From Macrostomum lignano (taxonomy: Eukaryota), in contig NIVC01000273.1 of the NCBI GenBank assembly GCA_002269645.1, positions 186,001 to 250,000 on the forward strand: DNA of 64,000 nucleotides, in the 5' to 3' direction. A model generated the notes under the pieces. It saw only the letters and a program-made list of their open reading frames with translations. It ran no database searches and was not told the origin of the DNA. Shown here in pieces: positions 1 to 51,859 of the stretch (its first letter is position 1; each line of letters starts with the position of its first letter). Position numbers and translations under genes: made by a program.

Positions 1-78
1 TTTTTTCGGGTTGTGTGTCGTTTTTTTTCTACTAGTCCTACATCCGACTAGTCCTACACCCTCACACCTCTTTTACCG

Positions 79-578
79 TCAGGGTGCACCAAATTGGTCA
101 AATTTAAAACCGCCTCCTTTCTTATATTCAGCTCTCATCTTTGCGTAGATGGCTGGATCGACACTATCTGCACTCGGTGCAAGGGGTTGAATATCTGGTA
201 TTGATTTCCGGGTTTCATGAACCGTATCTTTAATCTTTTTGGCTGCTGTGGCTACACTACCGGCCGCTTCGGCAACGTTCTTGATGTTCTCTTTGTTCTC
301 TCCAATGACCTTAAAAATCTTGGCCCCTTGAGCGATCAAATCGGCAAGACGTTCCCAGAACGTTCTTTTCTTGGATAGTGGCCTGCAGGGAAAAGTCCAG
401 ATCCGCGTTTAATGAGATTAAGTTCCTCTTTGTCGTAGTATTTGTCAATGTCTTTTTCGAAAATAATTGGCATCTTTTTAAATAGAAATTTATTTTTTGT
501 TAAACCGTGAAAGCAAAAGTTCTCTTGCTCTTTTATCGATATATTTTCTCTCAAGCATTTTGTCCAGGATGTTGACAA
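79..578 (-). pseudogene. Putative virion structural protein of a Polinton-like virus, frameshifted into two ORFs (336..578 and 79..339)
   Basis: The two ORFs overlap at 336-339 and join plausibly (..KRGSGLF..SGNVL / ADLIAQGAKIFKVIG..GSVATAAKKIKD). The amphipathic Gly/Ala-rich helix and GxG motifs resemble the ORF at 7198..7620. Confidence 0.45.
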
Positions 579-632
579 ATTCTTTTCTATTCTCGTCTTT
601 CATTCCGGTCTTTGCCGCTCCTAGAAGAACAG

Positions 633-1330
633 CTAACCGCTGGTAGAATTCAGGCATGCCTTTTCGGAAGAGCTTGGAGGTGATTCGAATGATTGGTCAG
701 AGGAGGAACTGTCATGTGGCGCTTGTCTTTGTTGAGGTGTGAATACTCTGTCATTGATTCGCTTCATTCGTTCTGGGGAGAGCCGCTCTAATTGTCGCCA
801 TTCATCTGGGCGCTGGTTTCTGTACTGGGAAATCTCATTTGGCCCTGATTTTTCAAGCGCTTCTAGTACTTGTTCGGGTGTGATTTGTTGCTGTGGCGGT
901 GGAGGTTGTTGTGGTTGTGGTTGTGTTTGTGGTTGCTGCTGTTGTGGTTGTTGTAGTTGTTGTTTTGGTTGCTGCTGTTGTGGTTGCTGCTGTTGTGGCT
1001 GTGGTTGTTGTGGTTGTTGTGGTTGTTGTCTTATGACCTCTTCTTGATTCGGCAAACCAAACCATTGTTGAAAGTATTTGTATTTTTTAAACCTGTTCAA
1101 GACAATCCCGTTTTCATGTAAAATTTTCAAAACACCGTCGTTCTTGAGCATATCTATATCCCTCTCTAAAGCGAAGGTAACAAGATCTTTGTAATTTTCG
1201 AACTGCTTTTTAGACGTTTTCTCTAGATTTTTAGTCATGTAGTCGAGTAAACTTTGAGTGAAGGGGATTCGTTTAGTTTCTGCGCCTTTATTGATTAAAA
1301 TATTTTCCTTTGTCACTTCAATTTTGTAAT
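633..1330 (-). pseudogene. 5'-deleted copy of the Q/P-rich conserved protein also at 28485..29306
   Basis: Near-identical DNA to 28500-28924 (NIEVTKENI..FKKYKYF.QWFGLP.QEEVIRQQ). The N-terminus is removed by the deletion junction at 1330/1331. Confidence 0.75.
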
Positions 1331-2166
1331 AAGAAGGAGATATCAATGACAGTGGTTATAAAAATAGGAAGAAGAGATACAACTATGCATTGCAAGGTGC
1401 TGATGATGCTGCTAAGAACCCGCAGTATCGGTCTGTTGATGTATTTGTGCCACTTAGATTTATGAGTGGATTCTGTAATACATTTAATCGACTGACTAAT
1501 AACTTTAGCTACACATTAAGACTGACTAGAGATGATCGCAGTAGAGTGTTGTGGACTGGGGCGGACCACACCGGGATGGCTGTGAAGCTAACCGGAATCG
1601 AGCTGTATTTGGAAGTCATTGAGCCAAAGACTGCACTAAAAGCTGATTATCTTAAGGCAATAGAGAAGGACATTGATGTTGCATACACGGCCTACATGTG
1701 TCGAGATGAGCGAAACGAAACTAGAACAAACATCTGCATCAAAGAGGGATCATGCAGCAATCCAAGGTATATCATTATTAACATGAGAAACCCAAATAGC
1801 ATTATACGCTACATGCATGGAGACGTGAGGTCCATTCAACATGAAATCAGTGATAATCTTTACCCTGCACTGCCACAAAATGGAGATTTCAGTCAGAACT
1901 AGATTTGAAAATTTTACAGCGAGTTGGTCGACTTGGCTGTGAAAGAGAACAATGGAATTGCTATCACTGCTCTTCAATATGGAACTCTATATCCGATGTT
2001 TGGCGCTGATGTGTCTGCCAGACAAATGCCTACTGATAACAGCCCTGTGAATATCGTGACTAACATTGAAAGGACTGCCGCAACACCCGTGGACCTGTAC
2101 ATTGTCTATGCATTTGAGAGGAAGGTGAAGCTTAACATGATCAACAATTCATCCAGTAAAGTTTAA
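1331..2166 (+). pseudogene. Major capsid protein (double jelly-roll, adintovirus/PLV type, lineage B), C-terminal portion
   Basis: ORFs 1390..1902 and 1924..2166 are in the same frame, separated by stops at 1900-1908. Motifs VPLRFMSGF, FSYTLRLTR, PRYIIINM, YPMFGAD and a beta-rich pattern. The 5' end (aagaaggagatatcaatgacagtggttataaa) matches the 3' end of the N-terminal fragment at 29788-29818. Confidence 0.7.
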
Positions 2167-2186
2167 ATATTTTTTTAGGACAAAAA

Positions 2187-3050
2187 ATGGAAGCTATAGC
2201 CGAAAGACTAAATAACATTGTTTCACACTCTAAGGAGAGCATTCCTATTACAATAACCGGGCTAATTAATGACTCAAACGGGATATTTGTTGAAAAATTA
2301 GAGCAGGCAATTCGCCTGGATCCAGGTGCTAATTACCATGTCTATCTAAACGACTTCACTGGTTGGTCAAACGTTCCCAATGTGACGGCAGCAAATAATA
2401 AGTTTTATTACAAATGGAAAGGTGCAGCAGCAGACCCTGTGGTATTCCCTGTGAGCACGCAAAGTGTGGATACCTACAATAACTTTCTAGAAAATGTCTT
2501 TACTAAGAGAGGCCATTTTGAGACACCTGATGCGAGTAAGCCAGAGAAGAAACTGTTCCCTGTCAAACTAACCTATGATCTCACTGTAATGAGAGTGGTC
2601 ATGCAAGTTCACAAAGATGCGGAGGTTGAGTTTAAAGATGACACTTGGTATAGGGAACTGGGATTCGAGAAGAAAGTTTATAAGGCAGAATCCGCGGCGC
2701 GGACCGCCACTCAAGCATCGGGGACTGTTAGAATGGTCCGGGAAAGTGTACGCGGTTTGTTCTTAGCACCCAATATTGCAGACATTGCAAAGGGTTTGAA
2801 TATTCTAATCAGAAGCAATCTCAGTCTTGATTGGGTATTTAAGGGAAAGCGAACGAATATTTTGTACAACATCTCCAACTCTGTTGCTGGAGGACAGATG
2901 GTGGTAGAGAAACCAAATCCAGTGAAAAGAGTTGTATTGAGTAATAAGGAGATTCACGAGATTGTGCTACAGTTTGAGACTGAAGATGGGATGGGCGTTG
3001 ATTTCAACGGTGAAGAGTTTGTATTGACGTTAACCATTGAGAGAATGTAA
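2187..3050 (+). CDS. Minor capsid (penton) protein, lineage B; open reading frame intact
   Basis: Motifs IRLDP..YHVYL, NVPNVTAANNKFYY, LGF, NILYNI, VEKPNP..VVL, IVLQFETEDG..VDFNGEEFVLTLTI, as in the Polinton penton at 10923. Confidence 0.8.
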   Translation: MEAIAERLNNIVSHSKESIPITITGLINDSNGIFVEKLEQAIRLDPGANYHVYLNDFTGWSNVPNVTAANNKFYYKWKGAAADPVVFPVSTQSVDTYNNFLENVFTKRGHFETPDASKPEKKLFPVKLTYDLTVMRVVMQVHKDAEVEFKDDTWYRELGFEKKVYKAESAARTATQASGTVRMVRESVRGLFLAPNIADIAKGLNILIRSNLSLDWVFKGKRTNILYNISNSVAGGQMVVEKPNPVKRVVLSNKEIHEIVLQFETEDGMGVDFNGEEFVLTLTIERM

Positions 3051-3755
3051 GAAATCACAATTGTCTAATGATTTCTGCAAAGTTATAATAGCTGTCGTAA
3101 TCTTTTACGTAGGTTACTCCATACTTATAAAACCAGTGTCTTTGGAGAGCTAGATTAATATTAGAGACATTGATATCAACGCCGGGCCAATATTTTCTCA
3201 TGTACTCGCTGCATTCAAGTTTGCATCGGTACTTGGGTCTGTACAATGGATTAGGCTGAGTATAATAAGAACCTGGAGAGACAACTGGAAACATTTTTAG
3301 AGAAAAATTAGATTTTTTTCAAAGGGTAAGGACCCTGCGCTGATAATTTAAAGTCTTAGGGATCAGGTTTCGTGTTGCGAATTGAATGTGGGGAGAAGAA
3401 TGCAGATTATTTTCTGATTGTTTCGAAGATGCTCTGGGTGGATGTCAGTGGATTATGTCTGTGTCAGTGAGCATAACAGGTATCAGTGGACACCTGCTCT
3501 GATTCTGTCAGGGATAATATGGATGGATTTAATGGGATTATGTTCGAAGTTTTCGGAGCAAGTGCGGCCCCTCCCCTTTTTCATGATTCTGTCAGGGATA
3601 ATATGGATGGATTTAATGGGATTATGGAGGACGTTTTGTGAGCGAGTGCGACCCCCCTTTTTTTCTGATTCTGTCGGGGATAATATGGATGGATCTAATG
3701 GGATTATGGAGGATGTGAAAAATTTTGTCCCAGAAGCCCCCTCATGAATTCTACT
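3051..3755 (+). repeat. Putative terminal (TIR) module copy 1: 79-aa ORF (3055..3294, minus), unique segment, about 3.5 copies of an ~81-bp unit, ending GCCCCCTCATGAATTCTACT
   Basis: Homologous blocks at 29819-30470 (inverted), 47512-48069, 50156-50630 (inverted) and 51860-52357. Four copies end at the same ..CTACT / AGTA.. boundary. Confidence 0.7.
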
Positions 3756-4789
3756 TTCCTACAATGCCTTCTTTCTCGAATTTGCACGAGAGGCTTACTG
3801 CCGCTAGAGCAACTCTTAGAATTCGTGAGCGAAATTTGCGACAACACCATAGGAACTCAATGTTTAGAGATATTGCCATCAACATCTTTTTGGAGTATAA
3901 CCCACAAAATTGGGCTAATGAAGAGCAGCTAAAGGTTAGTTAAAAAGTGTTTTTACATTATAAGGTTTTAAGTTTACAAAAATCATATACGAGCGCACCA
4001 AACCCTTTCCTAGAACTACTATCTTCAAAAACGACGCGTTCAAGAAGCAGAGAGGCGCTTGGTTGCTTATCGCAAAAGATATGGAGCACCAACTAGCTGA
4101 AATTCAACCAGAGGATAACCCGACTCAAGTACAGAACCATCCAGCACAGCCGGGGAATAATCAAGGGCTTTGCCAATCTGCCAACACGAACCACGGCCAC
4201 CAAACGTTACCATGGCATGTCGTCGAGCTGTGGTTTGTGAAATATGTTATCGCACCGGAATTCAAGAGGGCAACATGGTTAGGTGCCCAACATGCCGCGC
4301 TGATATAGAACCACCTAATGCGCCATAATTATCAACATGACTTGATATCAAACATTTATTAAGGTAATAATTTAAACAAATATATCATCGCTTTGAGCAG
4401 GCCACATTTAGCCCAATGGAGTTTGGCCTTTGGGGTCTGAAAGTCTTTTTCTGTTCCTGTGTTTATTTTTCTGTTTCTAAAAATAGACAAAAATGTGCCC
4501 CGTTACAGATCCACGCAAGCTAAGAGAGTATACAATAGGTGAGCCCCTAGAGTACAATGGAGAGGGTATTTTGATACTAGAAGCACCATTCCAACTTACT
4601 AAAAGACAATCTACCTCTCATAAGACAGGCAGGTGCAGCCGGAATCGCAAAGGCAGTCAATAATAAAAAAGCTGCCAATGAAGTAGGCGCAAAAGTAGCG
4701 AAAAATTAAGAAGACAAAGTATAATGATACACAGAAAATGCTAGTTGGATTATCTATGGAAATTTGTCCAAAAGAAAGCAAAAATGTTA

Positions 4790-5917
4790 AATTTTTCATA
4801 GAAAAATGGAAGCTAATAACCCAAATGTTCGAAATGCACTGCCACAAAAATATTATGATTCTATTATAAATTTCTCTCAAATAAAAACACCCATTCGAAA
4901 GGCTCGACTAATTGAAGAAATTGATAAAGCTTACGATGGATATTAAGCAGAAATATTAAAACACAGAGATTGTAAATGCCCCCCATATTTGTATTCATTC
5001 AGAGTATATCTTGCACATGTTGATAAATGGGCATTGATTTCAAGACAGCACATAAGGAATGATGAATTTTTCGTCATGCTTAAGTTGAACATTTTCAAAC
5101 TCCCCATAACCCTTGAGAAGTACATTGAAACTGATGAATTATATTGTTAAATTTATTTTTTTAAAAATGGAAAGAAAAAATCAAAACGATTCAAGTTTCT
5201 CTCCTGTGATCGTACAGGATCCGCTTCAAAACCATGATGCCCCACCACCAAGATTGACAAATTTAAAACAAACAAAATCGTACGATAAACTAATTAATCT
5301 CTATAGAGAACCTAATTTTAGATTCGGAAGTTGCAGTGTAACATGGAATAGTAAAACAAAGAAAAAAATACCGCCAGGAATGCCAACCAAAGCAGATAGG
5401 AATTCAACCTCACCACCATTTCGACCAGATGTAGACAACTTGATTTGGATAGATACTAGAAACTCAAATATAACCGTAATCGATATTGATAATGCTGACC
5501 TATGCCCTGAGTTGAATGAACTGTGTATGACTCATTGTGATTGGATTGTTCAGACAAACAAGGGACACCACTTTTACTTTAACAAGGTAGATGGATTGAA
5601 AGTAACGATTCAACAAAGTGTGGGTTTTGATATTCCCGCCTTAGTATTTGCTCCATCAGGTTTCTATTATGTCGATGGTGAAATGAAGGAATACAAACGT
5701 ACAAAGTGCGAGGGACTTATAGACATGCCAGATGTAGTTCTTGAGGAGATAAATAGATTAATTGAGCCACAGGATAAAAAGAAAACCAAGAACCCGATAA
5801 ACAGGCACTAAAAAGCACCGTTCCACCACCCACTTGTGAAGGAGTTTCAAAGTTGTTAAATATAATACAACACAAAAACCAAGACTATGATTCTTGGTAC
5901 AAGGTAGCACTTATACT
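4790..5917 (+). pseudogene. Truncated duplicate of the 114-aa ORF plus the primase-polymerase N-terminus (copy of about 15150-16283)
   Basis: Near-identical to 15150-16283. Contains a stop in the small ORF (gga tat taa) and an A-run frameshift near 5790. Homology stops at cacttatact (5917). Confidence 0.85.
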
Positions 5918-5933
5918 ACAAGGTACAAGGTAG

Positions 5934-7244
5934 TCAGCTATAACAAAACTACCACCCATCTTCGCCACTGGAAAATATCCTGGCGAATTTCATATTCCAG
6001 GGTATTCTTTTACTGGCCCAGGTACAAATTTAGACAAAAGACTCAATCCAATTGCAGACTGGCCTCGGTATGATAGTCTACCAATTAATCCAATTGATTG
6101 GACTGCTTATTATCATGACAAAAACTATAGAGATGCTGAAAAGACGTCTTCAACTCCAGAGGAAGCCTTAGCAAAGAAGCACATTGCTGATGAAAAAATG
6201 ATAACTAATTTAGATGCTATTCCAACCAGCGACTTGTCTGTGAAGGAGAGACTCATTAGAAATCTAGTAAAGCGTATTATCAAGGCTAAAGTTCGGTTTG
6301 GACTAGGCATTCATACTCACAACCCCAACAATTGTATAGACTGTCTAACAATTTATAGTAAGGGTCTTAGCTATGAAGATGCAGTAAAATTGCATAAAGA
6401 ATATCGAAAGCCAAGAGTATTTAGAAAAATGATTCACTATGCAAAAGACACAATTTGGCATGCAGATATCATTATCCTTCCTCCTGAAAGAGGTTACAAA
6501 TATGCTCTCACTATCATAGATGGTTTTACACGTTACACCTGGGCAGTACCTTTGAAAACAAAGACGGGAGCGGAAGTTGCAGAAGCTTTCCAAAAAGTAT
6601 TTAAGGAATCAGGAAGACGTTCAGAGAGACTTTTTGTAGATGAAGGCAAGGAGTTTTATAATCAGCATATGTACAAGCTATACTCGTTTTCAAAAGACAA
6701 CATTAGAAAGAAGGATGAAAGGGGTGAATATATTAACAAGATGTTTTCAATTTATGGCGAGTCCAAGAATGCAATGATTGAGAGGTTCAATCGTACTCCC
6801 ACAAATAAACTCTGGTTTGAATTCGATCTACAGGGTAATCAGAAGTGGCTCCACACATTGCCAGCTATTGTTGAAAAATACAACAACACAATCCATTCTG
6901 AGATTCTGATAACTCCTTCAGAAGCATCTAAACATCCTGAGCGAGTACCAAAGCCTTCCTTCGAGTATTCAAATGAGAAACCAAACTTCAAAGTAGGTGA
7001 CAAAGTTCATATCTATAGATATAAGGAGCACTTTGAAAAGGGTCGAAAAGGTTATTGGAAAATTTCAGAATTGTTTAGGATAAAGAAAATAGTTTATTCA
7101 AATCCCTTAACCTACATTATTGAGGATGAGAATGGAGAAGAAATTATTGGATCATTTTACAAATCCCAGCTTTTACCAGCAAATTTTTCAACTAAAAATG
7201 AGCGCCTATCGAACAAACTGCAAACGGGCGAAAGGTCAGATTGA
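5934..7244 (+). CDS. int: Parvovirus-VP1u-like phospholipase A2 domain in frame with a retroviral-type (rve/DDE) integrase; 5' end truncated
   Basis: Stop-free frame from 5934. PLA2: HIPGYSFTGPGTNLDKRL, PINPIDWTAYYHDKNY, HIADEKM. Integrase: LHKEYRK, WHADI, LFVDEGKEF, MIERFNRT, KFKVGDKV..TYIIEDENGEEIIGSFY. Confidence 0.85.
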   Translation, partial: SAITKLPPIFATGKYPGEFHIPGYSFTGPGTNLDKRLNPIADWPRYDSLPINPIDWTAYYHDKNYRDAEKTSSTPEEALAKKHIADEKMITNLDAIPTSDLSVKERLIRNLVKRIIKAKVRFGLGIHTHNPNNCIDCLTIYSKGLSYEDAVKLHKEYRKPRVFRKMIHYAKDTIWHADIIILPPERGYKYALTIIDGFTRYTWAVPLKTKTGAEVAEAFQKVFKESGRRSERLFVDEGKEFYNQHMYKLYSFSKDNIRKKDERGEYINKMFSIYGESKNAMIERFNRTPTNKLWFEFDLQGNQKWLHTLPAIVEKYNNTIHSEILITPSEASKHPERVPKPSFEYSNEKPNFKVGDKVHIYRYKEHFEKGRKGYWKISELFRIKKIVYSNPLTYIIEDENGEEIIGSFYKSQLLPANFSTKNERLSNKLQTGERSD

Positions 7245-7628: not shown

Positions 7629-8081
7629 ATGAGCGAGAAAAACACTGAAGCAAGACTCAATCGGTATGTTCGAGAGGGAAAACCAAGATATGTTACTGTA
7701 AATAAGCAAAAGCAATATCTTTCTAAAGAGAAGATTCGAGAATTGCAAGAGAAACAGAAAGAACATGAAGGTGGAATAATTCCTCTATTAGGCTTACTAC
7801 CAGCAATTTTGGGTGGTATCGGAGCAGCTTCCGGAGTTGGTACAATGATTGCAAAATGTGTTAATACAGCCAACAATGCTAAGCATAATAAGACAATAGA
7901 AAGCATTGAACGACAAAAACTAGAAGAGTTGAAAAAGGCTCAAGGGAGTGGAGTATTAGTTGATGCGGCTAAAAGAGTCGAACAAGTACCCAGAGAAGCA
8001 GTCAAGTGGCTGCTAAAGACGTTTAAAGTTGAAAAGGAGAAACAAGGTAAAGGGATAATTCTTAGACCTCACGAAGCTTAG
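7629..8081 (+). CDS. Adenovirus pX/mu-like core protein
   Basis: EGGIIPLLGLLPAILGGIGAASGVG resembles the adenoviral pX GG-[IF]LP..I...IGA motif. Basic N-terminus; directly upstream of the major capsid gene. Confidence 0.55.
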   Translation: MSEKNTEARLNRYVREGKPRYVTVNKQKQYLSKEKIRELQEKQKEHEGGIIPLLGLLPAILGGIGAASGVGTMIAKCVNTANNAKHNKTIESIERQKLEELKKAQGSGVLVDAAKRVEQVPREAVKWLLKTFKVEKEKQGKGIILRPHEA

Positions 8082-8101
8082 TTGAAATTTCTTGTATAAA
8101 A

Positions 8102-9465
8102 ATGGAGAACAAAAAGGATATACTGAACCTATATGAGGACAAAACTTTTAGCTTTTTCAAAAAGAAAGAAGACTATATTAAGATTTCTCCAACACCAGGT
8201 AGCACTAATAATCTCAATGTTGCTGGAGGTCAAATAGTTCATGAAGTCAATTCAACAGAGGCATACATTCTCATGTCAGAGGCATTCGGTTTTATAAGAT
8301 ACTCGATAACACAGCGAGATAACACAGACTTGAATACGAACATTACTCTAGAACATAATTGGCCTATGCGTCTGTTTTCTCAACTTATTGTGGACATAGG
8401 AGGATCAAAGAAAATCTATAATGAACCTGGAGAGTATGACACAATCTTAAAATCCGTAATGTACTCAAAATTGATGAATGAAGTTGGAGAAGCATACGGT
8501 TGGATTCCAGACACTGGAGATGCTGGGACTGTTTCTGATATACCTCTAGCAAACAACGCAGATGCTGAAGCTGTGAGAACTGCAGCAATCGCTATGAAAA
8601 ATAGACTTAATAAGAAGGATTCGAATACTGGATACATTAGGAGGCTTGAAAATTATAATAATGTCACTAATGCTCCAAACAGAGGTGGAACAATCAAACT
8701 ATCATTAACACCCTCATTGGGTTCCTTGATTGGCAGAAGATTAGCAAAGGAATTAAATATAAATTCACATGGAAAAGAAAGACTAACGATGCTGAAATTT
8801 TCTTTGGAGCTGCCGGGACGGAAGCTAAGTTAACTATTAATAGCTTTGAGATTTGGATCCCTGCTATTACTTTGTCACCCAGTGCTGAAGCAGCTTTTCT
8901 AAAATCACTCAACAAGGACATTATAGTATCATTTCCAGAGAGGGTAACGATTCCGCCACAACTCATTCAAGGAAGCCCATATACATGGAACATAACCAGC
9001 GTCTCCAATATGCCACTTGCAATCTTTGTAGCCTTCAAATATGACGTAAACAATCCATCATATATAGTTAATGATCACAAGTATGTATCTTACAAGACTG
9101 GAGCAAATGCAGTAAAAATAACCCAGCTTCAAGTCAGATTAAATCAGGTGATGTATCCAACTGATTATGTTGATATTGATCCAGTAGCTCAAGACATTCA
9201 TAAAGCGTATGAAATGTACGAGGACATCTGCAGCCATTTCGGTGTAACTCCACCATTCAATAAACAAGACTTTCTAACCATCTATCCAATATTCTGCTTT
9301 GATCTAACAGCTCAGGATGAGTTTCTTGTCAAGAATGGAGTGAATATTCAATTATTTATCAAGAAGTCAACTAATGTTGAGCTGACTGCTTTTGCACTAA
9401 TTCTTGAACAAACAAAGAATGTAATCCAAGTTATCAGTGAGTATCAAATGGGCCGCGTCGAATAA
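8102..9465 (+). pseudogene. Major capsid protein (hexon-like double jelly-roll, lineage A), one frameshift near 8700
   Basis: 8102 frame (NITLEHNWPMRLFSQL) continues after about 8701 in the 8872 frame (TLIGFLDWQK..KFTWKR..LTINSFEIWIP..PLAIFVAF..YPIFCFDLT). Size about 450 aa; next to the ATPase. Confidence 0.8.
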
Positions 9466-9487: not shown

Positions 9488-10198
9488 ATGCCCAAAGTAA
9501 AATTTCAGCATGATCCTATTTTCCCTAATCCTCTTTTATGTTGTATTATCGGCGCTACAAATACGGGTAAAACATATTTACTATTCCATATTCTTACAAG
9601 TCCTGAAAAACTAGTTGACTTTAATGAGTTAGTTTTATATGTTCCCAGAGCATCTCAAATGGATCCAGAGTATCAGTTTCTAAAGCATGGCTTTGAAAAT
9701 GGTCTCCCACCTTCTCTTATCAACTCACTCTATCATGTCTACCAGGTGAGTGAGGATGCATCTCCTGAAGATATTAGACATATTTGTCGAGAGGCAGCCA
9801 ACCCTGGTCGAGTGCAAAGCACATCAGAAAATTCAGAAGTAATAGAGAAAATTCCTGTCACTCTTTCCCATACTCCAAATGAAGAAATTTTTCATAATGG
9901 ACTAAAGGCATGTGTGATATTGGACGATGTTTTGGGAGAGGCTAATCAAACATTTCAGGAAAGTATGTTTCAGAGAGGCAGGCATGGAAACTGTTGTGGT
10001 TTTTATCTAGCTCAAAATTTTACCAAACTAGATCGCAATACTGTCAGGGAGAATACGACATGTTACATAATCTTTAAACAAAAGGCTAAATGTAGAGAGG
10101 CTTGGAAAAAGAAGTATGGCTATATCTATATAAATACAAGAGCTGATGAGGATGAGCAAGATTTGTATAAGGATGTTCTAACCAAAATCCCATTGTAA
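9488..10198 (+). CDS. A32/FtsK-HerA family genome-packaging ATPase (C-terminus possibly shortened)
   Basis: Walker A IIGATNTGKT, Walker B VILDD, RGRH arginine finger, LAQNF and REN..YIIF motifs. Confidence 0.9.
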   Translation: MPKVKFQHDPIFPNPLLCCIIGATNTGKTYLLFHILTSPEKLVDFNELVLYVPRASQMDPEYQFLKHGFENGLPPSLINSLYHVYQVSEDASPEDIRHICREAANPGRVQSTSENSEVIEKIPVTLSHTPNEEIFHNGLKACVILDDVLGEANQTFQESMFQRGRHGNCCGFYLAQNFTKLDRNTVRENTTCYIIFKQKAKCREAWKKKYGYIYINTRADEDEQDLYKDVLTKIPL

Positions 10199-10200
10199 AA

Positions 10201-10930
10201 ATGACTAATGAATATATAAGAGAACTCATTAATTTAGCAAAGAAGCGAGAAATGTACAAATCCAGAAATGATGCTCAACGCTATTTGAAAATTGGAGAAG
10301 AGAGTTTATATGCAAGAGTGGCTCCATTAGCTTAAAAACCTGTCACAGAAAAGCTTGATGAATTTATTGATGTCAATGCCAATCTTGTTGATAAACTTCA
10401 GAATCAAAAAGTTCCAGTTCCGCAATCAAGCACACCAAAAGGCCGATTTGAACCCCTAGAAGTATTTGACAAAATAATTGAAGAAATTGGAAAGATTCCA
10501 ATAACTCAAAGACCAGCGCCTAGTATACGGATTCAAAAAACTGATGCTGGATATATATTTGGATCATCTGTAATAGACGTTGAATTCCATAAACAAGGTC
10601 GGGACATCATTGTCAACGAATTCCGAATGCCATTTTCTGAAGATCTTGAAGAGTTGTTCAAAATGCCTAAAGTAACTGAAAATGGTGAAGAGCTGAAGCA
10701 ATTCAAGATGCAAACATTGCAGGATTATGTTAACCTCATTGAACACTGTAAAAATCCAGAAGCCAAATCAAGTGGGAATTATAAGAGCAGTAAGGATATT
10801 GAAAGATAATCCACCAGGATATCGAGTAAAACCGGGATCTGGACTCAGTGAAAGAGTGTTGACATTACTAGCCGCAAAAGCAGAGGGGCATAACAATGTT
10901 GATAAAGAGCTAGCAGAATTACTTGCTTAA
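10201..10930 (+). pseudogene. Conserved Polinton-like hypothetical protein, disrupted by a stop (~10333) and a frameshift (~10800)
   Basis: MTNEYIRELINLAKKRE..KPVTEKLDEF N-terminus resembles the ..FHKPGYTE region of 28485..29306. C-terminal PGSGLSERVLTLLAAKAEGHN. Confidence 0.5.
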
Positions 10931-11723
10931 AAATGGAAAAAGAAATAGAAAAGTCAACATCCTCTTGAGTAAAAAGTTTCAACGCACATTTGACTTCTTT
11001 TCAATTAAAAACCCATTTCGACAAACTCTAGGCACTCCGATAAATTTGTATGAAGATCGAGAATACGAAGCTGGTATAAAAAAGTTTGCAGTCTTTGATG
11101 CCATTAACAATATTGAAGGAGGCAATAATGAGTTGCGATACTCGAGGGATAGTGGTAGAACATGGAAAAAGTTAAAGATTCAAGCAGGGTCATGGGAAGT
11201 TAAAAGTCTGTCAAGCGAGATTCAAATATTGCTAACAGCTGCAAATGATTGGAAAGAGGGAGCTATTGTCTTCAGTGCAAGCCTAGACACGCGTAGAGTT
11301 GAGTTACGGTTAGCCACAGAGTATCAAGTTGATTTCAGGGATGCACATTCCAATAATTTTAGAAGACTGTTGGGATTCAATTCAGAAGTGTATTTGAAAC
11401 CATTTGAGAGAGCTCCAAATCCAGCTCGGATAGACGGAGCTAGAAGTGCGATCATGGTTCGTTGTCTAAATATCAAAGGGGGGTTTATCACTGATCCAGC
11501 TAATGGAAATCATTTAATTGATAAGCAAATACTTCTTTCAATTCCATCGTTCTCTGTCCCAATGGGAAGTAAAATTATTCAAGAGCCCGCAAATCCTGTG
11601 TACCTACCACTAACTACAAACATGTTGAGCACATTCGACTTTGTCATCGAAGATGAGTCTGGTGTTCTATACGACTTTGATGGCGAGGAAATATTTATAA
11701 ATCTACACGTACGACAAATATGA
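10923..11723 (+). pseudogene. Minor capsid (penton) protein, lineage A; probable start ATG 10933 is out of frame (5' frameshift)
   Basis: INNIEGGNNELRY, IQAGSWEV, LLGFNSEVY, EPANPVYLPL, FVIEDESG..DFDGEEIFINLHV; same pattern as 2187..3050. Confidence 0.8.
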
Positions 11724-11732
11724 GTGTTAAAA

Positions 11733-12162
11733 ATGAGCGAAGCTGAGACATGGAACGTATTTAAACTAAAGTTTGGGACTGACACTACGACAAATATTGA
11801 TCTGATAAATTGGGCAAAATATCTCAAGTTAAAACCATTTCGTTATGCCATGAGAGATGAAATTGTTGATTTACCACAGTATGGTTACTTTATGACAAAT
11901 ATTCACACTTCGAAAGAACGGGGTATACATCATTCAGCTATTTTTACAGCTCCTGATAAGGTTTATTTTTTTGATTCCTGTGCACTACCGCTCACACAGG
12001 AAATTATGAAAAGTTTAATCACACAAAGAATAGAATATGTGGAGACATGGAAGAACAAATTCAAACTTTTGATAAGAAATTTTGTGGTCAAATGTCGCTG
12101 TACTTTTTACACCGAATCGATAAAGGAGATAGCTTTAATGAAATTTTGCAGCAATTAAAATG
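11733..12162 (+). pseudogene. Adenain/Ulp1-like cysteine maturation protease, frameshift near 12050
   Basis: NIHTSKERGIHHSAIF (His) and YFFDS (Asp). The alternative frame gives EQIQTFDKKFCGQMSLYFL (oxyanion Gln and catalytic Cys). Confidence 0.8.
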
Positions 12163-13539
12163 AGTTACAAGAATACTGCCAATCAATTTGGTTACTCGTC
12201 AAATTCAAATGATATAGCGCCTGGAATAACAATAGCGTTAGCTGATGATCGATACATCAATGAAAATAAAGGATATAAGAGAGAGGAAATAGATAATTTA
12301 TTGTTAGCAAAGAGAAATGTTTCAGACTCTTATTCAAAGGAAGATAGTGACGCAATGAATGTCACCATGCTACAATTAATTGACGATGCTCATGGGCGTG
12401 TAAACAATGTCTACACAAAAACCGAAACTGACACTAAGATGTATTCTAAAACTGAGATTGACACTAAGATGTATTCTAAAACTGAGATTGACACTTTGTT
12501 AGCAGAAAGGCAAGGTACTGGGGGAGGTACAGAGAGTTCGAAATTAGTCAATATTCTTTCATTACTGACTTCAAACGCTTCCCATCCTGACATGAAAGTG
12601 ACCGCTTCTCATAACTCTTCAGCAGCATATCATGTTGCAGATTCAAACCCAGCTTCAGAATGGAGCAGTGCAGATGACTCAGACAAGTGGATACGAGTTC
12701 AATTTCTGAAAAGAGCTAGGAAAGTTGTAGAGATAAAGTTGGAAGGAGAGGTGTGGCCTGGTTGGTCTGTTAGTGTGAGCCTAAATGGAACAAACTGGAC
12801 ACCTGTTGAACAAAGTGCACCCATTGAACTACGAAGGGGCAATGCACATCTTAGGAAACAAATACCCAATCCCTCATATTATTTCCATTATTCTCTTAAT
12901 TTTTCTGGTTCCGTAAAGCTTACAAAAGTTGAATTACTTGAGAGACAAACAGTGGTTAATGATTTAGTGTGGCCTATAGATAGACTTCAAGCTGTACCAA
13001 AGCTATACGTAGACAATGCACTTGAATCAGTGGAGCTGCGACTAAGGCGGGGACTAGGTTTCAAATCTTATACAGGATATATTCCCTCACTAGCAACACG
13101 TCAAAACTATAGAGAAAGGGGTTACAATGTAGCGTCATCAGGAGCATTTGAAACGTCAGATAATTGGGGTTATATAGTATCTAATTCAGAATGGGCATCG
13201 AGGAATGAATCCAATTCTTACATTGAAGTACAACTTCCCGAGTCTATTCAAATTTGGAAATTCGGATTGAAAGGAACCAAAGCAGTAGGTAGTGAAATTA
13301 TAAAAAATCAACCAAAAAGTTTTATTCTGAAAGGGAGCAATAACAAGAGAGACTTTAGGAATATTTTTTCTACCGAAAATGCTGGTTTAGTTCCTGGAGT
13401 GATGAAATATTTTGAAGTAGCTTCCACTGAAAAATTCTCCGGTTATAGAGTGCATATTAATTCAGCCACTGAAGGATCAACCGTTCTTATTGTTTCAGGC
13501 TTTCAACTTTATCCGATTTTAGACATAATCGCCACATAA
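12160..13539 (+). CDS. Putative fibre/receptor-binding protein: Y[ST]KxE[IT]D repeats plus two F5/8-type-C (discoidin)-like domains
   Basis: Five Y(S/T/K)xxE(I/T/D)D-type repeats in the N-terminal part (some as a 30-bp tandem). Two beta-sandwich blocks with V.ASS...EW.S...W/Y-I.V-Q pattern and PKSFILKGSN. Intact 459-aa ORF. Confidence 0.65.
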   Translation: MSYKNTANQFGYSSNSNDIAPGITIALADDRYINENKGYKREEIDNLLLAKRNVSDSYSKEDSDAMNVTMLQLIDDAHGRVNNVYTKTETDTKMYSKTEIDTKMYSKTEIDTLLAERQGTGGGTESSKLVNILSLLTSNASHPDMKVTASHNSSAAYHVADSNPASEWSSADDSDKWIRVQFLKRARKVVEIKLEGEVWPGWSVSVSLNGTNWTPVEQSAPIELRRGNAHLRKQIPNPSYYFHYSLNFSGSVKLTKVELLERQTVVNDLVWPIDRLQAVPKLYVDNALESVELRLRRGLGFKSYTGYIPSLATRQNYRERGYNVASSGAFETSDNWGYIVSNSEWASRNESNSYIEVQLPESIQIWKFGLKGTKAVGSEIIKNQPKSFILKGSNNKRDFRNIFSTENAGLVPGVMKYFEVASTEKFSGYRVHINSATEGSTVLIVSGFQLYPILDIIAT

Positions 13540-13634: not shown

Positions 13635-14204
13635 GCAAGTAGGCAAACTTCACTCAATGACTAATGCAGGAATTCGGGGTTGTATATTTTTCATCTACTT
13701 TTGCTACACACAGAAGCAACCTCGCAGCGCAACAATATGGTCGGCTATTGTCCAACCACCGTAGCAAAGCAAGTAGGCAAACTTTACTCAATGACTAACG
13801 CAGGAATTCGGGGTTGTATATTTTTTATCTTATACTCTTGCTACACAGAAGCAAGCTCGCACCGCAACAATATGGTCGGCTATTGTCCGACCAAGATAGC
13901 AAAGCAAGTAGGCAAACTTCACTCGATGACTAACACAGGAATTCGGGGTTTTATATTTTTCATCTATTCTTGCTACACAGAAGCAAGCTCGCACCGCAAC
14001 AATATGGTCGGCTATTGTCCGACCAAGATAGCAAAGCAAGTAGGCAAACTTCACTCGATGACTAACACAGGAATTCGGGGTTTTATATTTTTCATCTACT
14101 CTTGCTACACAGAAGCAAGCTCGCACCGCAACAATATGGTCGGCTATTGTCCAACCAAGATAGCAAAGCAAGTAGGCAAACTTCACTCGATGACTAACAC
14201 AGGA
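13635..14204. repeat. Tandem array, 132-135-bp unit, about 4.3 copies
   Basis: Unit starts gcaagtaggcaaac at 13635, 13769, 13904, 14036 and 14168. Confidence 0.95.
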
Positions 14205-14439
14205 AATTGCCTCGACAAGAATTTGCCAAAATTTTGCCAGAAAAAAATATTTTTATTTTTTGTGCCACTTGGCACAGAATTGGCACCAATGAGAGGTTTC
14301 CGTTGTGCATTGTAAGTAAACCAACCAATAGGATTTAAGACACCGAAAAAATTGTTCTAGCAGCATTTAAAGCAGCATACAAATGGTTTCATCCAACCAT
14401 CTATACATCCATCTTTTAAGCTAAATCTTATCTCTTAAT

Positions 14440-14902: not shown

Positions 14903-15167
14903 AGACTTGAGTTTCCACTGTATAAGTGTTTAAAGTAGTTATAACATCTCTAGAACATCTTTTACATCTTTTAGAACACTTTAAAGTTATAACATCTCTT
15001 TAAAGTAGTTATAACATCTACTATCATGCTAAATCTCTTTAAGCCAGGCAACAGAATGCTCCGCGGAGCCTGGCCATTTGTGTCTGAAAATATTTTCTTT
15101 TGTGTTCCCCCTTATTTTAAACTTCCACTCGAATCAGATTGTGACTGTTAAATTTTTCATAGAAAAA

Positions 15168-15512
15168 ATGGAAGCTAATAACCCAAATGTTCGAAATGCT
15201 CTGCCACAAAAATATTATGATTCTATTATAAATTTCTCTCAAATAAAAACACCCATTCGAAAGGCTCGACTAATTGCAGAAATTGATAAAGCTTACGATG
15301 AATATAAAGCAGAAATATTAAAACACACCGATTGTAAATGCCCCCCATTTTTGTATTCATTCAGAGTATATCTTGCACATGTTGATAAATGGGCATTGAT
15401 TTCAAGACAGCACATAAGGAATGATGAATTTTTCGTCATGCTAAAGTTGAACATTTTCAAACTCCCCATAACCCTTGAGAAGTACATTGAAACTGATGAA
15501 TTATATTGTTAA
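15168..15512 (+). CDS. Conserved 114-aa hypothetical protein upstream of the primase-helicase (three copies in window)
   Basis: AAAAAATG start; homologous DNA at about 4807-5150 and 49540-49910. Confidence 0.6.
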   Translation: MEANNPNVRNALPQKYYDSIINFSQIKTPIRKARLIAEIDKAYDEYKAEILKHTDCKCPPFLYSFRVYLAHVDKWALISRQHIRNDEFFVMLKLNIFKLPITLEKYIETDELYC

Positions 15513-16646
15513 ATTTATTTTAAATAAAATGGAAAGAAAAAATCAAAATGATTCAAGTTTCTCTCCTGTAATCATCTTACAGGATCCGCTTCAAAACCAT
15601 GACGCCCCACCAACAAGGTTGAGAAATTTAAAACAAACAAAATCGTACGATAAACTAATTAATCTCTATGGAGAACTTAATTTTATATTCGGAAGTTGCA
15701 GTATAACATGGAATAGTAAAACAAAGAAAAAAATACCGTCAGGAATGCCAACCAAAGCAGATAGGAATTCAACCTCACCACCATTTCGACCAGAGGTAGA
15801 CAACATGATTTGGATAGATACTAGAAACTCAAATATAACCGTAATCGATATTGATAATGCTGACCTATGCCCTGAGTTGAATGAACTGTGTATGACTCAT
15901 TGTGATTGGATTGTTCAGACAAACAAGGGACACCACTTTTACTTTAACAAGGTAGATGGATTGAAAGTAACGATTCAACAAAGTGTGGGTTTTGATATTC
16001 CCGCCTTAGTATTTGCTGCACCAGGTTTCTATTATGTCGATGGTGAAATTAGGGAATACAAACGTACAAAGTCCAAATGTTTAATAGACATGCGAGATGT
16101 AATTCTTGATGAGATAAATAGATTAATAAAGCCACAGGATAAAAAAGAAAACCAAGAACCCGATAAACAGGCACTAAAAAGCACCGTTCCACCACCCACT
16201 TGTGAAGGAGTTTCAAAGTTGTTAAGTATAATACAACACAAAAACCAAGACTATGATTCTTGGTACAAGGTAGCACTTATACTCCGCGACATAGGCAGTG
16301 GTGATGAAATGTACAAAGTATTCACTGATTGGTCAAAAGTAAATTATGATAAGTTCGATTCCGAATCATGTAAAAAGGTGTGGAATAGCACCAATACCAG
16401 CTCTGCCGATCGAGAGGGCAGACTTACTATCGGTACACTAAAGAAATGGGCAAGTGGAGAAAACTATAACAAATATAAGGAATGGAAAAGCAAATATGAT
16501 TATTATGGTAGGATTGAGTATCTTGATGATAATTTCACTGACGTTAACATAACCAATTTTGTTTATGAATATAAGAAGAATAATATAATTTACAATAGCG
16601 ATGGTATTTACTATTTTAATGATGATAAGTGGAGAGAACTAAGTAG

Positions 16647-16842
16647 TGTAGTCTGGCTTGTTGGTGCGCGTGCACTTAGATGTGCACGTCTGGCTGGTTT
16701 GGGGGTTGGGGTTTAGCGCTGCGGCGTGTGCGTGCTTAGGGTGGTTGCACCCACCCCAACTTTGGCAATAAATATATTGGCGTGAGCCAGTGAGGTCTCC
16801 TCACGTTTTGTTATTCTCTGCAATTCAACCCACGGTCTTACA
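16647..16842 (+). repeat. 5' LTR (196 bp)
   Basis: Identical to 21398-21593 except one g/a (ggttgcac vs ggttacac); AATAAA inside. Confidence 0.98.
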
Positions 16843-16843
16843 C

Positions 16844-16856
16844 TGGTGGCAGCGGT
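16844..16856 (+). promoter_or_regulatory. Primer-binding site complementary to the tRNA-Leu 3' end
   Basis: TGGTGGCAGCGGT, 1 nt after the LTR, is the reverse complement of ACCGCTGCCACCA, the 3' end of eukaryotic tRNA-Leu isoacceptors. Confidence 0.8.
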
Positions 16857-16862
16857 CTCAGT

Positions 16863-17657
16863 ATGGCCAAATCAGAGCAAGCAAGTTTATTGCCTCCAAA
16901 GTTCAGCGGCGACTCCAACGTGAGAATGTGGCTAAGCACGTTTGAGGACTTCGCCGACGACTGCGAATGGGACGACAAGAAGAAGGCAAAGAAGCTGAGA
17001 CTGCTGGTGACAGGAGAAGCGCAAATCTTCGTCTGGGAGCAGCCGGCAGACGTGTCAGCCAGCTATGAAAGGCTGAAGGAGAAGCTGATCGAGTGCTTCG
17101 GCAACAGTCTGAGCTGCTACAGAGCAATGGAGGAGTTTGAGGAGCGAAAGCGACAGCCCAACGAGTCGCTGAGGGAGCTCGCCTACAGCCTGAAGCTTCT
17201 CCACCTTCGGGCCCGCCCGGAATACTCTGTGGCGGCTCGGGAAAAGGACGTGAAGTTTCGTCTGATGCGCCTCCTGCCATCTGCCGTGAGAGATGCGCTG
17301 TTGAAGGACCAGGACGCGGACTCGTGTTCGCTGGCCGCCATCGTCGACAGAGCTGCGCAGCTTGAGCTGGTGAGCCACGCAACTACAGCCTCATCAGCCG
17401 CGGTGTCGGTAGAAGACAGACGGCTGAGCCAGCTGGAGCAGCAGATGCAGCAGCTGACAGCCAGCGTGCGAACGGGACCACCCGGAAGAGACAGGCGTCA
17501 GAAGGGACCCATTAAGTGCTTCAGCTGCGGCGAGCCGGGTCACATTGCTAGGCGGTGCCCAAAGGCGATCGGCAGCCGCTGCAGCCGGTGCTCAGGCAAG
17601 GGTCACTCCGCCGCGGTGTGCCCGACACCAACTGGTCAGCCGCAGGGAAACTTCTGA
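16863..17657 (+). CDS. gag: Gag with two CCHC zinc knuckles
   Basis: PPKFSGD..W capsid motif; CFSCGEPGHIARRC and CSRCSGKGHSAAVC. Confidence 0.95.
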   Translation: MAKSEQASLLPPKFSGDSNVRMWLSTFEDFADDCEWDDKKKAKKLRLLVTGEAQIFVWEQPADVSASYERLKEKLIECFGNSLSCYRAMEEFEERKRQPNESLRELAYSLKLLHLRARPEYSVAAREKDVKFRLMRLLPSAVRDALLKDQDADSCSLAAIVDRAAQLELVSHATTASSAAVSVEDRRLSQLEQQMQQLTASVRTGPPGRDRRQKGPIKCFSCGEPGHIARRCPKAIGSRCSRCSGKGHSAAVCPTPTGQPQGNF

Positions 17658-17687
17658 GGGTCGGCAGCCTGGGGCCAGCACCGACCC
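17645..17687 (+). promoter_or_regulatory. -1 programmed ribosomal frameshift signal (G GGA AAC plus downstream stem-loop)
   Basis: Heptamer at 17645-17651 is phased X XXY YYZ in the gag frame, and pol is in the -1 frame. A 6-nt spacer precedes the stem gggtcgg/ccgaccc (17658-17664 / 17681-17687). Confidence 0.85.
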
Positions 17688-20600
17688 GCTCAAAAGGGGC
17701 CCTCAGATCAGCGCCTTCAGTCTTCGTGAAGGTGCACTTTGGCAGCGTGTCAGCGCCTGCTCTGCTCGACACCGGCGCGCAAGTTTCGTTGATGGACAAG
17801 TCGCTGTTCGACAGACTGCAGTGCAAGATCGACTCCACCGACATCGGTGCGCTGCCGACGGCTGTCGACGGATCCCGGCTGCGCTGCCTTGGCCTGTCAG
17901 CAGCGGATGTTTCGATCGGCCAGACCATCCGCGTGCGCCATCGCTTCACAGTCGTGGACGGCATCCAGCCCAGCCTGATCATCGGCATGGACTTCATTGG
18001 CGAGGTGTCGCAGGCGATGACCATTGACATTAAAGAAGGCGTCGTCAGGTTCGACGGCACAGCTGTGCCTTTCAGCAGCGAGCCGGCTCGAGCAGATTGT
18101 CGCCTGGTGCCGAGTGTCCTGGTGGCGCGTGTGGCGGCAACTACGGAGCTGCCCGCCCGCAGCGAGAAGCTGGTGTGGCTCAAGGTGGATTCCAGCGGCG
18201 AGCAGGGAGTCTTTGAGCCGTCTGAGGACTTCGTGAAGTCCACTGCCGTCCTGCCGGGCCGCGTGCTGGCGGTCTCGGACGACTGCCGCATCCCGGTGAA
18301 AATGTGCAACCTTGCAGAGGAGCCCGTGCTGCTGTACGCCAACAAGGCGGTCGGCACGTTCGAAGGCGCGATGACAGACGGGGACGGTCGCCAGGAGGCG
18401 GCCCAGGAGAACCCCGTCGGTTGGAACATCAACGCGGAGCTGCCCGAACCGGATGCTGCGAGGCTGCGACAGCTGTTGGAGAGCAACGAGGACCTGTTCG
18501 CCAGGCACGAGTACGACCTGGGCACGACGGCGTTGCTTCAGCACCAAATCGAGCTGGAGCCGGGAGCGCGGCCACACCGGCAGGTCCAGCGCCGGCTGCC
18601 GCTGTCTGTGCGAGACCAGGTGGACAAGAAGATCGGTCAGATGCTGGAAAGCGGCATCATCGAACCGTCGACATCGCCATGGGCCAGCAACCTGCTGGTG
18701 GTCCGCAAGAAGAACGGCGACATCAGACTGTGCACGGACTGGCGGCAGCTCAACGCCTGCACGGTCAAGGATGCATACCCGCTGCCGCACCTGCAGCAGG
18801 CCATGGATGCGCTTGTCGGATGCTCCTGGTTCTCCACCATCGACTGCCGGCAGGGCTACCATTAGGTGGAGGTGGCGGAGGAGGACCGGTACAAGACGGC
18901 TTTCTATTCGACGCGCGGCCTGATGCAATTCTGCAAGATGGGCTTCGGGATGTGCAATGCCCCGGCGACGTTCCAGCGGCTCATGGAGCTGGTGATGTCC
19001 GGCCTGTCTTGGGAGTCCGTGCTGACTTATATCGACGACATCATTGTCTTCAGCAGGACGTTCGACGAGCACTTAGAGAGGCTGGCGGAAGTTTTTAAGC
19101 GGCTGCGAGACGCGGGACTCAAGCTGCACAAGGCCAAGAGCGCGTTCGGCCATCGCCGGGTGCTGTACCTGGGACACCTGATCAGCGAGCAGGGCATCGC
19201 ACCGGATCCCGGCAAGGTCGAGGCCATTCGCAGCATGCCCAGCCCAACGACGAACGAGGAGGTGAAGCGGTTTCTTGGAATGCTGGGTTTCTACCGCCGG
19301 TTCATCCCAGGCTTCAGCCAGACGGCGAGGGTCCTGCACGACGTCAGCGTGAAATCGAGGGACTTCGCGTGGAGCAGCGACTGCGAGCGAGCGTTCCGCG
19401 AGTTGAAGGACCGGCTGACGACAGCTCCGGTGCTGAGACTGCCAGATTTCACCAAGCAGTTTGTGCTCAGCTGCGACAGCAGTCAGTTCGCCGTCGGCGC
19501 GGTGCTCAGCCAGCTGCACGGTGACGCCGAGCTGCCTGTGGCGTTCGCCTCTCGCACCCTCAACAAGGCCGAGCGCAACTACTCGGCGACCGACCGCGAG
19601 CTGCTGGCGCTTGTCTGGAGTTTGAAGCACTTCAGGACGTACCTGCTGAGTGTTCCGAGCTTCAGAGTCTACTCGGACCACCGGCCACTGCAAGGTCTGC
19701 TGGCAACGAAGGACCCCGAAGGTCGGCTGGCGCGATGGCTTTCTACGCTGCAGCAGTTTTCGTTCGAGCTGCTGTACCGGCCTGGCATGGACAACGTCGT
19801 GCCGGATGCGCTGAGCCGGGTGGCCGGCACGCGCCTGCAGCCTCGGTGGGACGACAGCCGCCTGCACGAGGAGCAACTGCAAGATCCGCTGCTGAGCAAG
19901 GCGTTCCAGGCGCTGACCGAAGGGATTGACAGCCTGTCCGATTCATGGGCGGCGCAGGTTCGCGAGCTGCTGGACGAGGCCTCGGTGAGCTCGGCGGGAG
20001 TCCTGCTGGTCGGTGGCCGGCCAGTCATTCCCGGTCACCTGCGGCCACATTTCCTGCAGCAGGCGCACTCGTGTGACCAGAGCGGACACCTCGGCGTCGA
20101 CAAGACCGGAGCGAGATTGTCTGAGCGCTGCTGGTGGCCTGGTCTGCGACGGGACGTCGAGAACTGGGTGGCCAGCTGTGCGGTCTGCCTGGCCAAGAAG
20201 AGTCCAACCAAGCCGCAGAAGGCGCCGCTACAGTCGACGTGCCAGCCGACGGCTCCGTGGCAGCTGGTGCAGATCGACATCAAAGGGCCGCTTCCGCGTA
20301 CGACTGATGGCAAGGCGTACATCCTGAGCATGTGCGACGCCTTCTCCAAGTGGATGGAGACGGCAGCCCTGGCGGCGATCGACGCGGTTACGGTGGCGGA
20401 TGCGCTGCTCAAGTCGGTGGTTCTGCGTCACGGCGCTCCTCAGGTGCTGCACAGTGACCAGGGACGGCAATTCGAGAGCGAGGTGTTCGGCCGGCTCTGC
20501 GAGAAGCTGGGCGTCGAAAAGACGCGCACGTCGCCGTTTCATCCGAGCGGCAACGGAATCGTCGAGCGAGGCAACCGGACGCTCGGCGATATGCTGGCGA

Positions 20601-21361
20601 CGACGGTGGCCGAGAACCAGCAGGATTGGGACAGCAAGCTGCCATATGTGACCTGGGCCTACAACACCTCCGTGCACAGCACCATCGGCCTCAGTCCGTA
20701 CCAGGTCCTCCACGGCTGGCCACCGAGGCTGGATCTCGACAGCTGGCTGATAAGCGGCGACCGGCCGGCAGCCGACGGTGGACATCACGGCTTCCTGCGG
20801 CGGACTCAGGAGAACCTGCAGAGCGCCTTCGACACGGTGCACGGCCGACTGCGGAGCGCCCAGGCCGAGCGCAACCGGCTGGCCAACCAGGACTCTCGGT
20901 TTGTGCCGTTCGAAGAGGGCCAGCGCGTGATGCTGCGCAACTCCGTCGTCAAGCGCGGCCAGACGCGGTGTTTGAGCGCCAAGTGGAAGGGGCCGTACCG
21001 AGTCCTGAGGCGCCTGGGCGAGGTCAATTACCGCATCCAGGACGAGACCGGCCGCAGGCGCCGGCTGGTGGTGCACCACGACCGCCTCAAGTGCTTCGTG
21101 CAGCGGCGGGCGTCACTGGAGCTTCCGGCCGCAGCAGACCACCAGCCGCCGGCCGCCGACTTCGACAACGACGGCACCGTCGCTGAGCCGCCCGGGCAGG
21201 CGGCCGATCCTGGCGGCGACGCGGTGACCTTCTGGCCCGAGCTGCAGGCAGACGAGGCACCCGAGGAGCAGCCGGCGGCACCAGCCGAGCCGGTCACGGT
21301 TCCGCGGCGGTCGGCGAGAGAGCGGCGGCCACCTGACTTGTACATGGCGGGCTTTGCTTGA
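17645..21361 (+). pseudogene. pol: Pol (protease, RT, RNase H, integrase with GPY motif), one in-frame TAG at 18863-18865
   Basis: LLDTGA; SPWAS; RLCTDWRQLN; GYH*VEV; YIDD; CDSS..AVGAVL; H..GHLG..C..C; IDIKG / SDQG / ERGN; WKGPYRV. Confidence 0.95.
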
Positions 21362-21384
21362 CTCTGGAACTGTCTTTTGCTTCT

Positions 21385-21394
21385 AGGGGGAAAG
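21385..21394 (+). promoter_or_regulatory. Polypurine tract
   Basis: agggggaaag, 3 nt upstream of the 3' LTR. Confidence 0.85.
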
Positions 21395-21397
21395 TAG

Positions 21398-44669: not shown

Positions 44670-44673
<4 letters not shown>
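43527..44673 (+). pseudogene. Maverick/Polinton PY-type major capsid protein, 5' truncated, frameshift near 44025
   Basis: LNN...TLFEDV, YPYKAML..LL.Y, GFYKDTAG, DLFRQPRYLL, NGSLATNPFNF, VNGEAVP, YNGGYTILAYSL. Confidence 0.85.
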
Positions 44674-51855: not shown

Positions 51856-51859
51856 GTGG

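Follow-up and report, generated by a model that had tools for sequence, protein, structure and literature searches.

Judged from sequence comparison, the open frame at 5934-7244 (+) of the window (that is, the whole 64,000-nt stretch of Macrostomum lignano DNA analysed here) is a 5′-truncated fragment of a genuine gene in which a parvovirus-type phospholipase A2 (PLA2) continues into an rve integrase, and the fusion is a conserved Maverick/Polinton gene architecture rather than a one-off stop loss. We consider it probable that the window holds a 5′-broken copy of a gene whose product is cut by the protease at a GxG motif during maturation, with the PLA2 carrying the integrase into the particle. 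The architecture is common in sequence data and apparently undescribed in print; its value lies in the family, the single window copy being ordinary decayed element DNA.

The fusion frame

The frame is single and spans 436 amino acids between stops, with Phospholip_A2_4 (PF08398) at residues 18-95 (E = 1.3e-8) and rve at residues 170-246 (E = 6.3e-10), both above the curated Pfam cut-offs, which bears out the claim of an earlier note on this DNA that the PLA2 runs into the integrase with no stop between them. The FTGPG loop, HD dyad, downstream Asp, GxG and CxxC all lie where that note had placed them. The features of the frame are as follows.

5934-7244 (+): PLA2–integrase fusion frame, start codon missing (open frame; Pfam; 76% identity over 416 aa to P0247, a natural full-length relative)
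5985-6299 (+): parvovirus-type phospholipase A2 domain, residues 18-122 (Pfam PF08398)
6009-6023 (+): calcium-binding loop FTGPG, residues 26-30, of the YXGXG type with Phe for Tyr (motif reading)
6114-6128 (+): catalytic HDxxY (HDKNY) with His61, Asp62 and Tyr65 (motif reading, alignment)
6189-6191 (+): further conserved Asp86 of the PLA2 (motif reading, alignment)
6300-6308 (+): GxG motif, residues 123-125, at the PLA2 domain end; predicted protease site (motif conservation)
6309-6365 (+): linker of low model confidence (pLDDT), with CxxC (residues 134-137, 6333-6344)
6381-7181 (+): rve integrase with D178, D236 and E283 (Pfam rve, Foldseek)

The motif set that defines group XIII (parvovirus-type) PLA2s in PMC3626588 (YXGXG loop, HDXXY and downstream Asp) is present in the window protein as FTGPG, HDKNY and Asp86, and H61, D62 and D86 are invariant across 45/45 aligned sequences. 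The integrase ends in a small beta-rich domain; the window protein gave no Pfam Chromo match and is without the C-terminal integrase chromodomain that, with an OTU-like domain at the PolB N terminus, defines adintoviruses in the available text of PMC11071296, and some fused relatives (P0107, P0144 and P0224) do possess a chromodomain. A full-protein model (45 sequences as input) consists of two confident domains and a low-confidence linker between them (pLDDT <50 at residues 125-132 and 134-141), and the PLA2 half modelled alone reached a pLDDT of 93. The best PDB counterpart of the PLA2 model was weak (rice PLA2, Z 7.3, rmsd 3.7, 91 aligned residues; unrelated helical proteins scored up to Z 6.6), and Foldseek of this model against the PDB returned no match at E 0.001. 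In Foldseek searches, the integrase half matched the foamy virus intasome (E = 6e-15), as well as MELD-virus and mavirus integrases.

Decay of the window copy

The frame is flanked by a rearranged primase fragment on one side and by virion genes on the other:

4785-5917 (+): 5′ fragment of a primase-helicase gene, frameshift near 5775, rearranged onto the PLA2–integrase gene (96% identity to 15146-16283)
5918-5931 (no strand): junction insert in place of the 5′ end of the PLA2–integrase gene (alignment break, sister contigs)
7630-8081 (+): small separate open frame resembling genes beside fused relatives that we take, from general knowledge, to encode pX-type core proteins (tblastn to L006:2410-2919, E = 6e-6)
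8066-9465 (+): double-jelly-roll major capsid gene in two frames, frameshift near 8700-8760 (PF21738, E = 2.7e-14 at 8671-9465; tblastn)
9488-10198 (+): A32-type packaging ATPase (Pox_A32, E = 0.0018, below cut-off; tblastn to the ATPases of L006-L009 and L026, E to 2e-35)
10914-11723 (+): likely penton (minor capsid) gene (tblastn to L009:5878-6648, E = 4e-26)
11724-12158 (+): adenain-type cysteine protease gene, frameshift near 12030-12060 (tblastn to L007/L016 protease open frames, two frames, E = 4e-14)

The penton label, which we presume from gene position and general knowledge, belongs to a frame (10914-11723) that gave no Pfam match. With its rve integrase, major capsid, packaging ATPase and adenain-type protease genes, all of the Maverick/Polinton (alpha adintovirus) type, the element is a decayed Maverick/Polinton within a eukaryote genome. 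A PolB-like frame at 22971-25136 (-), read by eye, in which Pfam finds Endonuclease_7 alone, may belong to the same copy. The repeat arrays at 3346-3757 and 29817-30472, inverted relative to each other and ~90% alike, are candidate element ends.

No in-frame ATG precedes the PLA2 in 5934-7244, the first Met being residue 89 (6198). Relatives P0002 and P0247 have ~16 extra N-terminal residues starting with Met, and the upstream fragment, which has a weak Pfam Prim-Pol match, aligns to the 5′ region of that primase gene, the match ending abruptly at 5917. Together, the missing ATG, the primase junction and the longer, Met-starting relatives mark the window copy as 5′-truncated, its start having been lost at the junction with the primase fragment (5917-5932). 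The insert there includes a 10-nt repeat of sequence at 5896. In 4/4 runs examined, out of 24 listed, sister contigs leave the window at 5917 (continuing as primase) and enter it at 5932 from a different 5′ sequence; no bridging piece was found among the sister-contig pieces listed. Because contigs leave at 5917 and join at 5932, the junction is likely specific to the window copy. A primase–PLA2–integrase read-through was considered and rejected, given the stop at 5931-5933 and the lack of this join in sister contigs. The capsid and protease genes downstream are both frameshifted, and the window copy is likely dead; that it is itself a source of polyprotein is not supported, its own start being lost and its protease gene frameshifted.

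Other genomic copies were assessed through read contigs. One of these (run X8) covers 6186-6478, spanning the linker with 0 gaps, and the 23 differences that fall within the frame, among the 40 listed of 133, comprise 15 synonymous and 8 residue-changing ones and 0 stops. The possibility raised in the earlier note, that a lost stop had created the fusion, thus failed on these contigs and on the fused state of close relatives.

Spread among relatives

Pooling 99 database matches with the top 150 of 9986 matches from a 50%-identity library gave 245 relatives. Both Pfam domains were found in 30/99 of the database matches and, by profile, in 68/245 of the pooled relatives, 67 with PLA2 followed by integrase and 1 reversed; the 67/245 is not an estimate of prevalence, as the query favours fused proteins. 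Together with the window protein, the fused proteins form 37 clusters at 60% identity and 28 at 50%, and fusion is seen in relatives of 30% to 80% identity. Among 50 metagenome loci, both domains share one frame at 20 and occupy separate frames at 7; of the others, 14 have PLA2 alone, 6 have integrase alone and 3 have no trace of either. Three of the seven separate-frame loci (L020, L022 and L035) seem to be fused copies that have broken. Capsid, ATPase and protease genes adjoin the fusion at L006-L009, L016 and L026, and the longer loci of the set have pX-like genes beside it as well.

Catalytic residues are largely kept in fused proteins: HDxxY in 55/57 full PLA2 domains, the calcium loop in a loose form in 52/57 (strict GPG in 31) and the DDE pattern in 59/65 integrases. 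No relative was found among IMG/VR viral contigs by the window protein or by alignment A3. Used alone as query, the PLA2 part yielded 2 proteins among 9 candidates and no close stand-alone PLA2, since P0290, from a contig of 568 nt, breaks off within the domain and P0291 is a piece of a fused protein; this is weak evidence.

Variations on the architecture also occur. In the reversed protein (P0236), integrase, chromodomain and GxG precede a C-terminal PLA2, and in six others (P0035, P0037, P0039, P0042, P0053 and P0182) a DUF5679 zinc-ribbon-like leader, mostly ending in GG, precedes PLA2–integrase.

Glycine motifs at domain borders

In 58/68 fused proteins, a GxG or GG occurs no more than 16 residues from where the PLA2 ends, compared with 20/3784 control windows in the integrase, and after PLA2 in 32/37 proteins after thinning to 60% identity; the protease-type GxG noted earlier between the two domains is thus a recurrent feature. 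A GG or GxG also stands ahead of the PLA2 start in 21/26 fused proteins with a leader, and many leaderless ones begin with Met at the leader-motif position. The junction motif is absent from 10/68 fused proteins, and some linkers are merely 12-14 residues long. Its P4 residue is mostly other than the M/I/L/N/Q of the adenovirus protease. The linker CxxC, to which the earlier note had also pointed, is present at residues 134-137 of the window protein and is not general: it was found in 5/68 fused proteins, all in the closest clade, and a general function for it in zinc binding or as a switch was discarded on that count. In that clade, 7/8 relatives have a CxxC linker closed by a second GxG and the eighth is without both; the window copy is without the second, linker-closing GxG.

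At six metagenome loci (L027-L031 and L033), a stand-alone PLA2 ends 1-4 residues after the same motif (one has GAS), and the integrase, a gene apart, begins at an ATG of its own within ~30 bases after it. The GxG may therefore partly be a C-terminal feature of the PLA2 itself, which tempers the argument for cleavage.

The motif recurs where the partner is not a PLA2. Five retrieved integrases have a viral protease in place of PLA2, and when the protease part was used as query, 119 of the 120 matches listed (of 198) carried integrase, with the H/D/Q/C catalytic pattern kept in 116/119. GxG or GG falls within 22 residues of the integrase start in 117/119 of these listed fusions, compared with 7/72 unfused integrases with an N terminus that long; the 119 proteins form one close family (55-83% identical across the protease part), so the 117 are not independent events. 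Counted over the same 22 residues, PLA2 fusions reach 40/67, because many of their linkers are longer. A conserved GG|X- or GX|G-type motif is thus found at domain borders in both PLA2 and protease fusions, cleavage itself being predicted.

Protease–integrase(–chromodomain) fusions were seen in two separate clades (P0143, P0211 and P0292-P0409; P0059, P0062 and P0116). At L007:2182-3513 (-), a protease frame continues into a pX-like region, another virion polyprotein.

Origin of the fusion

On an integrase tree of 56 rows, with which a FastTree analysis of 235 rows agrees, four PLA2-fused, two protease-fused and two lone integrases occur together in one clade (SH-aLRT 95). The PLA2 label requires 11 changes on the 56-row tree, at least 4 of them forced by well-supported branches. 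The window falls within a well-supported 10-row clade that keeps the fusion (SH-aLRT 98). PLA2 and integrase distances are weakly correlated (rho 0.24, p 0.009, 32 proteins). The idea that the fusion arose once finds no support in the 56-row tree, on which lone rows may be truncated gene calls. The fusion probably arose more than once from neighbouring genes, given the existence of a lineage in which PLA2 ends after GxG with a separate integrase directly behind it, an arrangement (L027-L031 and L033) that is likely the unfused state. Most retrieved integrases are unfused, so that fusion is not required for packaging.

At two further loci (L025:957-972 and L039:873-888), a T TTA AAA that is conserved and in the right phase, with an A-run behind it, lies directly ahead of the stop of the PLA2 frame; the integrase then reads on in the -1 frame, its conserved start being preceded by no ATG. 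The two contigs differ at many positions, and there is only weak structure downstream (about -6 to -8 kcal/mol). The site may possibly represent programmed frameshifting or slippage, the alternative being a shared old mutation.

Proposed model and alternatives

Whether animal Mavericks/Polintons form particles at all, and by what route their integrase would get to the next cell, has so far been mostly a matter of inference. A cleavable fusion of integrase and virion protein would, if true, provide a concrete mechanism for the latter. In the model that we propose, the integrase would be made joined to a virion protein (PLA2 or protease) and packaged as a polyprotein, and the viral cysteine protease would cut at GX|G and at an upstream GG|X leader site during particle maturation. 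The freed PLA2 could then help to breach the endosome, as in parvoviruses, and the freed integrase would travel with the genome to the nucleus. This model draws on mavirus, whose protease cuts GG|X and GX|G (with some GXG sites staying uncut) and whose virions contain integrase and a cleaved hydrolase (PMC6048507), and on proposals that Polinton lipases are packaged and aid entry (PMC4642659, PMC8502044 and PMC11903649). The cutting enzyme could instead be the PolB OTU domain described in PMC11161782. The earlier note had envisaged that the fusion couples entry to integration; no dedicated coupling of membrane breach to integration need be assumed, because the N-terminal partner on the same integrase clade can be PLA2 or protease, and carriage would be the simpler function.

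Processing and carriage have to be weighed against three other readings. The gene could be a product of genome compaction, in which late neighbour genes merged at a harmless protease site, the product being cut early and packaged independently of the fusion. The 11 changes of the PLA2 label on the tree (4 or more of them required by well-supported branches), the weak correlation of PLA2 and integrase distances and the existence of separate neighbouring PLA2 and integrase genes would all fit such a history, as would the packaging of an unfused integrase by mavirus (PMC6048507). However, both kinds of partner, PLA2 and protease, are predicted to be virion proteins, and the fusion has been retained across the 10-row clade that includes the window; we hold compaction to be unlikely, if worth keeping in view. 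That stand-alone PLA2s end at the same motif, that ten fused proteins are without it and that some linkers are so short would be expected if the fusion stayed uncut, with GxG as the natural PLA2 end and the tethered lipase and integrase passing entry together. Against this stand the glycine motifs at the integrase start in nearly all listed PLA2-free protease fusions, compared with few unfused integrases, and the two GxG sites that bracket the linker in 7/8 of the closest clade, and we regard an uncut fusion as distinctly improbable.

An accident of the window copy (that is, a lost stop or an assembly join) can scarcely be credited. Although the copy is decayed and a rearrangement lies 400 bases upstream, a sister contig crosses the linker gapless, both domains share one frame at 20/50 metagenome loci, and the fused state of relatives at 30% to 80% identity refutes an accident. 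For protease processing and PLA2-mediated carriage, which we favour, the fusion offers a small biochemical test, with one protease, one substrate and one predicted cut site, and would define a substrate rule for the Polinton protease and a convergence with retroviral Pol.

In retroviral Gag-Pol and Pol, an rve integrase lies within a polyprotein with virion proteins and protease and is freed by the viral protease. Unlike retroviral Pol, the present system would be that of a DNA virus with a cysteine protease, glycine sites and no reverse transcriptase, its processing being predicted. We suggest tentatively, with doubt somewhat outweighing confidence, that many Mavericks/Polintons converged on retroviral integrase delivery, with a swappable-carrier polyprotein, release at glycine sites and, in L025 and L039, dosage set, in the manner of Gag-Pol, by -1 frameshifting at a slippery site behind the PLA2. 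If this were true, the fusions would constitute direct sequence evidence of a packaged pre-integration machine and of spread as particles.

Relation to described systems

The PLA2X of alpha adintoviruses (group 2 Mavericks/Polintons) ends in a pX-like domain, and their integrase is a separate gene (PMC8502044); shared with the window is a parvovirus-type PLA2 grouped with integrase, ATPase, capsid and protease genes in one module of virion genes, whereas the window PLA2 continues into the integrase and the pX-like frame is separate, at 7630-8081. The words 'fused' and 'fusion' are absent from the main text of that paper (Starrett et al. 2021). With mavirus (Born et al. 2018, PMC6048507), the present elements share the rve integrase and a clan CE protease with glycine sites, processing here being predicted, but by the available text MV02 (integrase) and MV13 (hydrolase) are encoded apart in mavirus, and the latter belongs to the alpha/beta hydrolases and is not a PLA2. 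The group XIII PLA2 of parvovirus VP1u, for which a role in endosome escape is proposed, has the same YXGXG-type loop, HDXXY and downstream Asp, yet is tethered to a capsid protein, and the Polinton PLA2 here to integrase (PMC3626588 and PMC11903649).

In insect Mavericks, PLA2 and integrase are separate open frames (PMC5803895), and phospholipase is common in group 2 Mavericks according to 10.64898/2026.06.19.733378, the available text of which does not mention a fusion. Nor is a PLA2–integrase fusion described in the available text of PMC3671162, PMC4061559 or PMC11071296, the last of which notes possible frameshift-made hexon–protease fusions. Searches of the literature turned up no account of the fusion, and prior mention may exist, as most subscription papers lie outside their coverage. 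The earlier note had named an already widespread architecture as a ground for refutation, and among sequences the architecture is indeed widespread (67/245 relatives), though no published account of it came to light.

Other features of the window

Beside the protease gene, a fibre-like frame at 12142-13539 has an F5/8 type C (discoidin) domain (E = 3e-10) and may encode a receptor-binding protein. Repeats of ~80 nt and ~135 nt form arrays, in part paired in inverted orientation, at 3346-3757, 13635-14205, 29817-30472 and 47510-52357; they are possible element termini. A broken deoxynucleoside-kinase-like frame lies amid small virus-like frames at 39194-40500 (by eye). More Polinton fragments (capsid, penton and PolB pieces, from open-frame lists and by eye) occur at 1-3050, 27764-29870 and 40824-44673, among them, again by eye, a second, different PolB–capsid–protease set. 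A GC-rich Gypsy-type LTR retrotransposon with long gag/pol frames and 202-nt LTRs that are 99.5% alike occupies 16641-21593, within the primase-helicase gene, and is likely a recent insertion.
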